A stretch of 52,899 nt of DNA, filler included, from Squatina squatina (Eukaryota), in assembly GCA_031763465.1 (NCBI GenBank). It is 3 parts of 3 records of this genome, joined end to end, with 100 filler letters (N's around TTAATTAATTAA, not from the genome) between each part and the next. Parts side by side here need not be neighbours in the genome. Positions count along the whole stretch, not along the records: positions 1 to 15,461 come from JARFOE010000162.1; 2 more parts are not named here. One strand, written 5' to 3'. Numbering within the stretch: the first letter of the stretch is position 1; each line of letters begins with the position of its first letter. Of the stretch, positions 8,383 through 12,847 are shown one piece after another. The notes under the pieces are model-generated. The model worked only from the letters and a program-made list of their open reading frames with translations. It did not search any database and was not told the DNA's origin. The position numbers were made by a program, and so were the translations under genes.

Positions 8383-8949
8383 ATGTCAGCTGCAAGCTCT
8401 TTGCAGATGACGGACATAGTTCAGGCATGTCACAGTTTTATCAAGGCAGCTTTAGATATCAGCATAAAGACTGAGCCATCAGAAGATATTATGGAGTATG
8501 ATATGGGAGCCCCCTCAAGCAGCAGCATTGATGTTGTAATGCCAGTAGCAGTGGGCAGGAGTAGCTCTCCCTGGTTGGAAAGGCGACGAACAAGCCCGGC
8601 AAATTCTTCTGGAGATTCGGCAATTGCAAGTTGTCATGATGGTGGGAGCAGCAACAGCAAAGAGGAACATGAGCAGAAAACTGACAGTCACGATGACATC
8701 TCATCACAGTCACTCTGGTCCAGTGATGTTGGTTACAATTCATTTAGAGTCAAGGAGGAGCAGATATCTCCTTCACAGTATGGAGGTGCTGAACTAAGAG
8801 AATCTCACCTTGGCAAGAACAGCACTTCAGCACAGAACACTTTTGCCCAGGCTCATTTCCAGGCTACTGCAAGAGGCATCAACAATATCACAGAATACAG
8901 CGATTCGGTGATAGTATGGACTGTAACACGCAGTCTAGTAGCACGGTGA
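8383..8949 (+). CDS. ZBTB46: ZBTB46-type protein, large coding exon (end of BTB domain plus linker); 5' part lost in gap, 3' boundary unresolved
   Basis: MSAASSLQMTDIVQACHSFIKAALDISIK...RRTSPANSSGDSAIASCHDGGSS...RVKEEQISPSQYGG closely matches recalled human ZBTB46 (MSAASFLQMTDIVQACHDFIKAALDISIK...RRTSPANSSGDSAIASCHDGGSS...RIKEEQVSPSQYGG). Similarity fades after ~8845. Confidence 0.88.
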   Translation: MSAASSLQMTDIVQACHSFIKAALDISIKTEPSEDIMEYDMGAPSSSSIDVVMPVAVGRSSSPWLERRRTSPANSSGDSAIASCHDGGSSNSKEEHEQKTDSHDDISSQSLWSSDVGYNSFRVKEEQISPSQYGGAELRESHLGKNSTSAQNTFAQAHFQATARGINNITEYSDSVIVWTVTRSLVAR

Positions 8950-9261
8950 TTAAGGTTTCTTTCGTTACACATAGCCTGTGTGTGTGTCCACACAGGTCTA
9001 CCTCACCACCACCTCTCTCGACCCCTCCANNNNNNNNNNNNNNNNNNNNNNNNNNNNNNNNNNNNNNNNNNNNNNNNNNNNNNNNNNNNNNNNNNNNNNN
9101 NNNNNNNNNNNNNNNNNNNNNNNNNNNNNACAATATTTGAGATTTTAAGAGAATTGTGCATTTTTTGAATAACTTACTACAGGTGCCATGCTGAAAAATT
9201 GAACACAGACGATCAAATAAGGTCTCAGCCTGGAATCTGATCCTCTAATCGGCAGCAGAGG

Positions 9262-9389
9262 TTTCAGCGTGGTCCCTGCGCCCGACCTTGGCAGTAGTGG
9301 TGTCACCGCGGTCCTTGCACACGACCTTGTTATAACGCGGTCCAGCGATCTGGATCCCGTGGACCGTGTTATAGCGGGGTCCCAGTGTA
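9262..9389. mobile_element. Terminus of a Tigger/pogo-like (Tc1-mariner) non-autonomous DNA transposon
   Basis: 'gttataacgcgg...ccgtgttatagcggggtcccagtg|TA' has the Tigger-type TIR form ending at a TA, with an internal repeat 'ggtccYtgcRcMcgaccttg' twice. Confidence 0.5.
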
Positions 9390-9719
9390 GTATTTTCAAT
9401 TTGCAGCTATCTCTGACACCAATACTATGTAACTTGGCCACTGGACTTGGGTAGGGGGGGTGGGGAATGGGTAATCGCTTCCATTTATGTTGCTATTCAT
9501 TTAGAAATTGTCTGAAGGTGCTTCAGAGATGCAGCAAATAGTGCAACAAACTTGCCCACTCATATCATTCTTTATATGCACATAGTAATGTTCGAGATCA
9601 GTTGACTTGAACAGTATTTATGTATTTAACATTCAGATCCTACATTAGCTAGTATTATTTCTGTATTTTAAAAAAGAAGCAAGCTCGCGTAGCTAACTAA
9701 CTTGCTTGTGTTTCCTTAG

Positions 9720-9898
9720 GTGCAGATGTCACTGAACCAAGCAGTTCAGATAGTCGGGGAGACAGACCCGATTTCTGTCAGAANNNNNNNNNNNNNNNNN
9801 NNNNNNNNNNNNNNNNNNNNNNNNNNNNNNNNNNNNNNNNNNNNNNNNNNNNNNNNNNNNNNNNNNNNNNNNNNNNNNNNNNNTGACACCACAAGCAG
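9720..9898 (+). CDS. ZBTB46: ZBTB46 next coding exon (contains a 100-N gap)
   Basis: Acceptor tttccttAG at 9718-9719 with an upstream ctaac branch motif. Phase-1 reading ADVTEPSSSDSRGDRPDFCQ matches human ADLSVTEASSSDSRGERAELYAQ. After the gap: xTPQA, then CAG|GTAAGT at 9899. Confidence 0.75.
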
Positions 9899-11520
9899 GT
9901 AAGTGGTGGTGCTGCAAATTATTGACTTCAACGAACTGCGATGGAAAACCATATGCAATAGTTTGTTACAAATTAAAGTATTTCAAACTACGTGGATTAT
10001 AATTTATTAAATTTAATTTAAATTATAAATATAAAGCATCATAAGATCAGCTGTACAGTGTCAATTTTGCATAAATTGAAATTATACATATATTGACTGA
10101 GAAAGCAGAAAAGACATGGTCCTGTTTCAGGCAATATTGCTTTAGCATATAGCCTGAAACATTTCAGCACCCATGTTTCCGTAGGTGATGAGCTTTGTTA
10201 TTTGAACAAAACATTTCAGAAATTGTATTGAAAGCATTACTGTAATGTTGTCAGTACCTCCCCTGAGCTCACTCCACTTGGTTCTCCTGCAATCAACTCA
10301 AAACTGCATCTGTCCATAGTTGCTGTATACTGATCGTAATGCATAAATGTTCATAGTATTTAATGTGTGTGTGTGTGTGACCTCTATCATGAAGGTCTTT
10401 GGGAGTAATCCATTCTGAAACTTTAAGGACTTGTTCAAAGCTTGTACTTTTTACTGTGATCTAGCTATACTCAGTTGGTCCCTTATTTAAGTGGTAACCA
10501 ACTGTGATTGTGTAGTGCTAAGACTTTGTAAGTAATAAATAAAAGACCAAAAGGATTTTGTCATGTATTCTAATTTGGAAATATTTAGCATTTTCTGATT
10601 TCAGGTGGGGAAACTGGCTTAAAACCTTGCTTTTGTAATAGTTTCAAGGCTTGAATTTTGGTTTATCTAGTCTCATTTTGGCCAAACTGCTGCTGTTTTC
10701 TTTTAAAAGCTGTCTTTTTTTTAGTCTGAGCAATTTGGATCTTAAAGATAAATTATGTTCAATTATCCTGTCCTGTTGGGCTATTCAGGAATATCTGTTA
10801 TTGAGGAGGGTCAAGAATCTAATAAGAGAAATTTTGAATGCCAGCTCAAATGTGCACAGGTTGGTGATTAAATTGATACTACTTTTCTCACTTGCTGTGC
10901 TTTCATTCATTGCAGTATACCTATTACCTCTTATTTTAAAAATCACAGAACTGAACGTTTTATTTAGGTTTGTTTTTGCATTTTTCATAACTAGTGTTTC
11001 AAAACTGAGATGAAGATTAAGCATGGTTGTTTGGTACCATACAAACGTTTATGGAAACGGGTTTGTGTAGGAAGCTTAGGTGACCTATGTTTTTTCCGAT
11101 CAGGGTTTATACTTAATTAAAATTACCAGTGTACTGTTTTAAGACAAAGTGTACTTCAACTACAAATTGTTGATGTATAATTTTGTGGTAATTCACTTTG
11201 TAAAGAAAGTTTGTGGTATTGTAAGAATAGTTTGTATTTTTGGCTACATATGCTAAATTGAATATGCCAATTTGTGTTCTTTTAACAGGGGCAACAATTT
11301 AGTTTTGTTCATTCAAATAAAAACTTTAAAACACCTTGATTACTTTAAGACACATAGTTTTGAAGCTATGGGCAATTCCTTTCAAACTTTAGGATCTCCC
11401 TCCTCTTTCTCACTGGCAGAAGAGAAACAGAAAAACACTCTTCTGCAGTGCGTTTCTTTTTTGTCGAAAGCCAGCTGGTGCTAGTTTACGTGGGTGAGAC
11501 TCGTTTCCTGTGTTCCTCAG

Positions 11521-11687
11521 GGCCCGGAAATAACNNNNNNNNNNNNNNNNNNNNNNNNNNNNNNNNNNNNNNNGATTTGTCTCCACTGACTTCCCAATTT
11601 CCAGAACAGAGTCCTCCTAGGATGTTGCAATATGATGAAAATTTACCTGAACAAATGTCACACAAACCAGCTGACTCACCATCACAG
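11521..11687 (+). CDS. Internal exon (GPGNN...DLSPLTSQFPEQSPPRMLQYDENLPEQMSHKPADSPSQ)
   Basis: Acceptor ttcctcAG and donor CAG|GTAAGA. Phase 1 in, phase 0 out; the 39-N gap keeps the frame. Confidence 0.7.
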
Positions 11688-11998
11688 GTAAGAATCAAAA
11701 ACCATTGTTTGAACCATTTCAGTTATAAAGACATTTAAAAGTTAAAGGACTGTTAAAATGTAAGTGCAAGTGTGGGAGGGGGCTGCTAATTTGTATACAT
11801 GAGGAATTTTAGTTCTTTGTCAACATTTTTGTATCTTGAATATTTTCTAAACACAACTGTATCCTGTGGAAAATCAGTAAGGTTGCACTTCATTTTTTAA
11901 AAATGGATGATTTTTATTAAGTTATGCCACCTTTCTATATTTATTTTCACTTATAAATCGCAGTTCATTTATTAACTTATGCCATTTTGCAATTACAG

Positions 11999-12062
11999 AT
12001 CAAGGTAGATAGTACAGAGGGAATCCTGACAATGTCAAAGTCTTTTGAAAATTCCAGTTCAG
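11999..12062 (+). CDS. 64-bp internal exon (IKVDSTEGILTMSKSFENSSS)
   Basis: Acceptor attacAG and donor CAG|GTACAG. Phase 0 in, phase 1 out, which exactly bridges the flanking exons. Confidence 0.65.
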
Positions 12063-12146
12063 GTACAGTTGGTATTGTTTTAAATTTGCAAATTTTTTCC
12101 CTTAGAAAAATGATTGAAATCTAATACATGGATTTCCTTCTCTAAG

Positions 12147-12847
12147 GCCCTGATGTCAACATTGCAACAGATTTCTTGAAAGGTGAAGATCCAAAGATGG
12201 GGACCAGCTTCATTCCAGACCAAGTTTTAAAGGATTCCAGTTTCCCGTTGCCAGCCACAAGCTGGCATCAAGAAGAGCTGGCCTGTAGATTCTGCAAAGT
12301 GGGGTTTAACAGCCCTGAAAAGCATAGAGAGCACGAATATCGACATGCATTAATGCTGCTACCAGTTGATAATTCTGATTATGTAAGGCCAGCCCTTGCA
12401 ACCACAGGCATCCATGTGTTTCCTGGGCAAGCTTTCCGGTATCAATGCTCCAGGTGCCCTGCCAGCTTCACATTGAAATCAAATGCTGAGCGTCATGAAA
12501 AAACTGTCCACTACAAACGTAAAAACTTGCAATGTTCATTTTGTCTGAAATCTTTTCGCGATAGAACTGATTTAAATCGTCATGTAGCATCTGTACATTC
12601 ATGTGAGCGTGCATTTGTGTGTAGTAACTGTGGAAAGAGTTTTGGCATACAGAAAAACCTAATGAATCACATGAGAATTTGCTATCAGGGTAGTACCCAG
12701 GTAGGTATTGAGCTTTCTGACCAGCTTTCGGACAGTGGTGGCCTAAAAATTGAGGAGCAGCTTGAATCTTATGACGATACACCAGTACTTGGTTCCATCC
12801 AGCAGCTCTCCACTTCACAGCCCAGTGAAATTAAATTGTCAGAATAA
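12147..12847 (+). CDS. Terminal exon encoding four zinc fingers (3 C2H2 + 1 C2HC)
   Basis: Acceptor ttctctaAG, phase 1. Fingers CRFC-x12-H-x3-H, CSRC-x12-H-x4-H, CSFC-x12-H-x4-H and CSNC-x12-H-x3-C. TAA at 12845-12847, then an AT-rich 3' UTR. Confidence 0.88.

Follow-up and report, generated by a model that had tools for sequence, protein, structure and literature searches.

A probable second, four-finger end of the ZBTB46 gene in Squatina squatina

Shared exons and an alternative end

ZBTB46 is a repressor and a standard marker of classical dendritic cells, and it is used as such in work on fish and chicken. Parts of this gene lie in the stretch of Squatina squatina DNA considered here (the window, 52,899 nucleotides in all, positions 1-15461 of which are those of C162 of the genome assembly with an offset of 4,654,425), where readable segments of its shared, BTB-containing half are followed by three alternative exons, A1, A2 and A3, the last of which encodes four zinc fingers and a stop codon (Table 1). 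We argue that a single shark ZBTB46 gene probably makes two kinds of transcription factor from this shared half by means of two sets of terminal exons.

The middle of the shared BTB-containing exon is 95-97% identical to shark ZBTB46-like proteins. Its identity to ZBTB46 exceeds that to ZBTB10 and ZBTB8, the next locus in the genome reaching 47%, and ZBTB46 itself occupies one locus, with no second copy in the genome. The paralogous BTB-finger genes at C203:3917919-3943958 and C13:6405039-6418450 are presumably the ZBTB8 tandem pair and ZBTB10. Of the two ZBTB46 exons proposed in the original prediction, an earlier reading of this DNA from its sequence alone, the segments 8383-8844 and 9720-9783 stand, and the stretch 8845-9029 turns out not to be ZBTB46. 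For comparison we used contigs from four public runs (X1-X4), which represent three related organisms and three studies and whose RNA nature is a guess; contigs of all four runs cover 8383-8844, and in all four they extend past position 9783.

Farther downstream, the three junctions drawn in the original prediction (9898>11521, 11687>11999 and 12062>12147) are indeed all GT-AG with phases 1, 0 and 1, and the reading frame across them stays open to a stop codon at 12845-12847. Junction 12062>12147 is spliced in 4/4 runs, and the intron 11688-11998 is likewise skipped in 4/4, with in-frame length differences of +9 nucleotides (nt) in three of them and -3 nt in one. The AATAAA of the likely 3' untranslated region (UTR) is found at 14369, and the relatives' contigs cover this region as far as 13391, close to where the compared stretch ends.

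The donor that feeds the first of these junctions probably lies elsewhere, as far as can be judged from the sequence: the main donor would sit inside the assembly gap 9784-9883, so that 9898>11521, GT-AG and in phase as it is, would not be the main junction. The residues TPQA read after the gap appear in 0/21 shark and ray records covering the last shared exon; in 20 of these 21 the residues Lys-Gly read directly into the exon that starts at 11521, the remaining one using another acceptor. In three shark proteins the Lys-Gly donor falls 191 bases past 9783, and shared-exon contigs end exactly 191 nt past the same position in two of the four runs (X1 and X4); it is because these lengths agree, and because TPQA is missing from every record, that the donor is placed in the gap. 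Exactly the first 30 bases of the alternative-exon contigs of X1 and X4 are non-intron sequence, which is the overlap expected at a branch if the shared and alternative contigs join, and the X1 match starts at 11519 and not at 11518; this agrees with an exon that ends in AAAG, as at the in-gap donor, and disagrees with the 9898 donor. The gap, once suspected of hiding a gene boundary, stands for coding bases and a donor, and the likeness that had been seen between the post-gap xTPQA and human PLTPEK does not hold, since the portion of the exon in question is hidden in the gap. Bony vertebrates usually use a second donor 18 bases further on, both donor lengths being present in caecilian and bird models; the donor at 9899 may be the counterpart of that second donor, a homology that we infer.

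Ahead of the 11521 acceptor lies a conserved intronic stretch, a candidate splicing control element: over 11472-11534, a gar model whose reading extends into the intron is identical at 19/21 codons (E 1.7e-6). The conservation of 11472-11520 was not recovered at E<0.01 with the intron alone, and an Rfam search of 9884-15120 gave 0 matches at E<=1. A hairpin upstream of the acceptor was considered and rejected, being no better than shuffled sequences (z -0.92; 40/200 equally stable). Contigs of three runs cover intronic 11165-11520, by intron retention or from an internal start; the interval has four ATGs, none of which opens the reading frame.

The fingers of A3 are, as had been predicted, three of C2H2 and one of C2HC type; they match Pfam PF00096 (E 2.8e-13) and PF22995, and their zinc ligands are present. 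Conservation was scored over 34 records chosen as intact across the tree, a set without hybrids and without the damaged garter snake, pheasant and alligator records. In this alignment finger 1 keeps little beyond its ligands (4/21 columns invariant), finger 2 is invariant in 15/22 columns and finger 3 in 14/22, with the helix residues L,S,N,R of the former and D,T,D,R of the latter present in 34/34, and finger 4 is invariant in 7/21 with positions +2 and +3 kept. Arginine at +6 together with asparagine or aspartate at +3 is the usual base-contacting pattern of zinc-finger helices. Among 28 listed differences to one relative, synonymous and replacement changes number 7 and 3 in fingers 2-4, and 4 and 12 outside the fingers. 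The predicted structure has four ordinary fingers with four helices and a flexible linker after finger 1 (mean predicted local distance difference test score, pLDDT, 75.8), and no packing between fingers (predicted template modelling score, pTM, 0.35).

The alternative and canonical finger arrays are 29% alike and their helices differ; an origin of the former by duplication of the canonical fingers has no support at this level of identity. No similar exon was found near the paralogues in the genome, where the next match is generic, at 46%. A profile-free search of 1.84 billion representatives was swamped by long generic finger proteins; one of the 150 rows listed was an orthologue (elephant shark), and the search gave no hint of the origin of the exon. 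A sequence search of the PDB yielded 25 generic finger proteins and no solved relative of A3. In the ESM Atlas, the clusters nearest to the zebrafish region were generic, mostly arthropod finger fragments, all with fewer than 170 common features; one of them is named fruitless, which we treat as a lead only and do not take as common descent.

Table 1. Features of the ZBTB46 locus in the window
Feature	Position	Strand	Remarks
CpG island, likely promoter	2950..3620	+	GC 0.62; CpG observed/expected 0.87
Candidate non-coding first exon	in 2950..3620; donor after base 3154	+	assigned to ZBTB46 from its position only
Upstream coding exon of shark ZBTB46	4015..4130	+	ATG at 4072; phase-2 donor
Middle of shared BTB-containing exon (BTB end and linker)	8383..8844	+	5' part on another contig, 3' part missing
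Non-ZBTB46 sequence, likely chimeric contig end	8845..9029	.	relatives hold 170 other letters there
Common repeat	8989..9029		within 8845..9029; 39 other repeat matches among 40 scored
Start of last shared exon	9720..9783	+	21/21 residues identical to P0001 and P0003
Assembly gap	9784..9883	.	takes the place of the annotated donor and of at least 191 coding bases; no gene boundary here
Intron start with second GTAAGT donor at 9899	9884..9898	+	possible counterpart of the bony-vertebrate 18-base extension
Conserved intronic stretch before alternative acceptor, candidate splicing control element	11472..11520	+	gar model
Alternative exon A1	11521..11687	+	39 N inside; matches proteins and contigs
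Alternative exon A2	11999..12062	+	matches proteins and contigs
Alternative last exon A3, coding part (four fingers and stop)	12147..12847	+	protein matches
Finger 1 (C2H2)	12284..12346	+	isolated by a 33-residue linker; variable helix residues
Finger 2 (C2H2)	12446..12511	+	helix -1/+2/+3/+6 = L,S,N,R
Internal phase-1 donor position after finger 2	12518..12519	+	ray and bird models join canonical fingers here
Finger 3 (C2H2)	12533..12598	+	helix -1/+2/+3/+6 = D,T,D,R
Finger 4 (C2HC)	12620..12682	+	helix +2/+3 = K,N
Likely 3' UTR	12848..14374	+	AATAAA at 14369-14374

The canonical end and the distribution of the two ends

The canonical last exon lies at C162:4675417-4676097, with an open frame of 226 residues, and begins 8,145 bases beyond the alternative stop; because it follows on the same scaffold and the same strand, the gene holds both ends. 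The statement that the canonical fingers are absent thus holds for the window, with the canonical last exon following at this distance. Both ends are also recorded within one species, for example in the Tasmanian devil (P0023 and P0262) and in the platypus (P0031 and P0281). Since both ends occur in the same species, the canonical last exon lies downstream and there is no second locus, we read the arrangement as one gene with two ends, which supports the earlier suggestion of switchable terminal finger exons in a vertebrate BTB gene. The canonical last exon also carries about 11 tandem 27-base units (L011:6600-6900; C162 about 4675600-4675900) that encode an acidic 9-residue repeat; a similar acidic-repeat expansion is seen in ray protein P0008, and not in gar or mammals. 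Marsupial and monotreme models (P0266, P0283 and related ones) have an extra 23-residue cassette before the canonical finger exon.

With the finger exon as query, a protein search gave 104 hits, nearly all of them under the name ZBTB46 or zbtb46 and most with a BTB domain. Carriers of the exon are found among sharks, rays, gar, bowfin, paddlefish, bichir, teleosts, caecilians, lizards, tuatara, turtles, alligator, birds, monotremes and marsupials, and the elephant shark extends the range of conservation to a chimaera; A3 is 88-90% identical to three shark ZBTB46-like proteins and 47-60% identical to the marsupial and monotreme isoforms. Judged by these sequences, the alternative end is at least as old as the split between cartilaginous and bony fish. 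The gene is ZBTB46 itself, neither a paralogue nor a gene with exons peculiar to sharks, and the lineage-specific paralogue offered in the original prediction is refuted by the single locus and by orthologous exons across jawed vertebrates.

The proteins fetched comprise 164 with the four-finger end only, 127 with the canonical end only and 43 hybrids, these being counts of records, not species, from searches directed at just these classes. The hybrids of rays and birds exit A3 right after finger 2 and continue with the canonical fingers; the corresponding GT is present in the window at 12519, and contigs pass through it without a break. In marsupial, turtle and kiwi models, the alternative exon is also exited before its fingers. 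The largest clusters are those of bird hybrids in which fingers 1-2 alone are kept.

In placental mammals the alternative fingers were not encountered: none of the 104 proteins found with the shark query was placental, a marsupial query gave 0 placental proteins among the 120 matches listed, which reached as far as generic finger proteins, and 0/43 placental records examined had them. Placental ZBTB46 is present in the database, as follows from a control query with the shared exon, which gave 22 named placental ZBTB46 rows among the 120 matches listed. In 13 of the 43 placental records the shared exon is followed by RPG, which is also what marsupials and turtles show; the sources of these records are human (XP_016883156.1, UniRef A0A494BZW5), orangutan, siamang, canids, seals, otter, donkey and gray whale. 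Scored against a profile from 20 non-placental exon starts, with 300 shuffles per tail, 9/11 of the RPG tails tested beat at least 298/300 shuffles (the human tail beats 300/300), and 0/16 of the other, non-RPG tails passed. The finger-less tails diverge and end at various points, which is what a decaying exon would produce. We infer that the placental lineage lost the fingers and kept the acceptor, which would have left an isoform devoid of fingers, such as human XP_016883156.1. The short isoform of mouse is a different product, probably made by reading through the donor.

The four-finger isoform is already annotated, a circumstance that had been named in advance as removing its novelty. Predicted isoforms in RefSeq and UniRef include those of zebrafish (XP_021325589.1), Mustelus (XP_078092707.1) and turtle (XP_048675351.1) and a chicken hybrid (XP_015152092.1); they are automatic predictions that contain these exons and all four fingers, except that the chicken hybrid has fingers 1-2 only. 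Novelty is limited because these sequences are in the databases. A literature search, with subscription journals and supplements outside its scope, found no description of the second end, of the hybrids or of the placental remnant; a trout ZBTB46 paper could mention variants. The biology is apparently undescribed in print.

A proposed switch between two finger sets, and its alternatives

In the mechanism that we propose, the shared donor would either take the near acceptor at 11521, in which case the transcript would end at the nearby poly(A) signal (AATAAA at 14369), or skip to the canonical finger exon. Both forms would be able to pair through their common BTB domain. Fingers 2-4 would read a DNA site other than the TGACGT core, roughly nAn-GCn-GAn if the usual finger code is applied to their helices, and finger 1 would likely be accessory. 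The four-finger exon is real, ancient and likely functional. As for the canonical form, PMC3428942 places two C2H2 fingers in exon 4 of mouse ZBTB46 and gives TGACGT as the core of their site.

Mouse and human ZBTB46 (zDC, BTBD4) have the BTB domain, the shared exons and the canonical last exon in common with the shark gene; unlike it, placental ZBTB46 has no four-finger end in the 43 records. A common BTB part with alternative ends is the arrangement of the fly genes broad, tramtrack and fruitless. It is also that of Drosophila lola, a tramtrack-group BTB gene, for which PMC5127561 describes a common BTB half joined to alternative C-terminal finger exons, at least 20 isoforms, trans-splicing and different specificities that have been demonstrated. 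Shark ZBTB46 resembles lola in joining a shared BTB region to alternative finger ends, and on its sequence it would qualify as a switchable BTB-zinc finger gene of the lola type. It differs in having two finger sets and a hybrid rather than some 20 ends, and its second specificity is a predicted one. By this analogy ZBTB46 would work like lola without being a member of the lola family, and we do not claim common descent of the switch. Within vertebrates, a BTB-zinc finger precedent is human PATZ1 (ZBTB19), whose four spliced isoforms have four to seven C-terminal fingers according to PMC11354804; its isoforms, as described there, differ in finger number, whereas ZBTB46 would swap the whole array for one of low identity.

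Several observations weigh against this picture. The runs are those of relatives of S. squatina, on top of their RNA nature being guessed, and the joint between shared and alternative exons rests on length arithmetic and predicted gene models rather than on letters read across it. One contig, from run X2, reads through 11165-11687 into A1 without splicing and is spliced farther downstream; in the elephant shark, the exon (XP_007909246.1) is annotated as a separate gene. The canonical finger exon was not found in the readable genome sequence; where it is expected, there are a 1,405-base run of N and a 100-N gap. The second DNA site is a prediction from helix residues. Fingers 3-4 look damaged in one garter snake, one pheasant and one alligator model (P0119, P0112 and P0097), and a parallel loss of these fingers in some lineages is possible. 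The protein searches gave no four-finger opossum record and no frog, salamander, lungfish or coelacanth row; further losses beyond the placentals are possible. The placental loss itself is read from protein databases only, and the otter and gray whale tails fail the shuffle test (62 and 80 of 300).

Some of these points could be accommodated differently. The cassette might be spliced as described and its fingers mainly bind protein or RNA, or serve only to sequester the canonical form. This would suit the variable, acidic helix residues of finger 1, the linkers, which are not of the TGEKP type, and the lack of inter-finger packing in the model, but we consider it unlikely, as in fingers 2 and 3 it is helix positions -1, +2, +3 and +6 that do not vary. 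A somewhat less likely alternative still is a separate gene without a BTB domain, or an internal-promoter transcript, nested in a ZBTB46 intron and joined to it in the models by mistake or by rare read-through. The lone annotation in elephant shark, the unspliced X2 contig and the conservation upstream of 11521 could all be read in this way; however, gene models of animals as far apart as sharks and marsupials share this joint, the length arithmetic of the contigs fits it in two organisms, none of the four ATGs ahead of A1 opens the reading frame, and the acceptor is still in use in the placental remnants. Next to the main product there may nevertheless be a minor one without the BTB domain.

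We attach hardly any credence to the alternative of a lineage-specific ZBTB46 paralogue with a replaced finger array, or of an assembly artefact across the gap. In its favor, the assembly is very fragmented (1.15 million contigs), the stretch 8845-9029 is foreign, and codon 8398-8400 reads Ser where 381/381 fetched records have Tyr or Phe. It is already largely refuted, however, by the single locus, by the canonical last exon downstream and by orthologous isoforms in contiguous genomes of many species.

If the single gene with two terminal exon sets is accepted, shared-exon probes could not separate the two ZBTB46 proteins in non-placental vertebrates, and mouse target lists may not transfer to these animals; a salmon study (PMC8155612) lists a single zbtb46 primer pair. 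Vertebrates would then have their own instance of the exchange of an entire finger array known from flies, retained since cartilaginous and bony fish parted, and one transcription-factor specificity would have been lost, at a datable point, at the base of the placental mammals. Zebrafish carries the exon, so that these predictions are directly testable there. A bolder and rather doubtful extension would give the jawed-vertebrate ancestor a ZBTB46 switch between two specificities, with a second gene programme and, through splicing, hybrid arrays like those of rays and birds. In this view placental mammals gave up the second DNA-binding end and retained the splice choice; the human isoform without fingers would be a dominant-negative BTB partner today, and the old switch of specificity would have turned into one that shuts ZBTB46 off in dendritic and endothelial cells.

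Upstream exons and the state of the assembly

It is because of the fragmentation of the assembly that parts of the ZBTB46 gene fall in gaps, and the fetched flanks of the locus are 10-87% N per stretch. The upstream coding exon agrees in 20/20 residues with the N-terminus of shark records P0001 and P0003, and its phase fits the start of the BTB exon on the unplaced contig C498277. On this contig lies the 5' part of that exon, with the first part of the BTB domain 100% identical over 47 residues; the middle of the domain had no match in the assembly as searched. Where the segment 8845-9029 stands, 57 codons are expected, and it probably marks a chimeric contig end.

The serine codon at 8398-8400 lies 16 bases from a gap and is likely a sequence error. 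Frames that resemble repeat fragments, presumably of the LINE/CR1 type, occur at 2452-2853 (-) and 8066-8281 (+).

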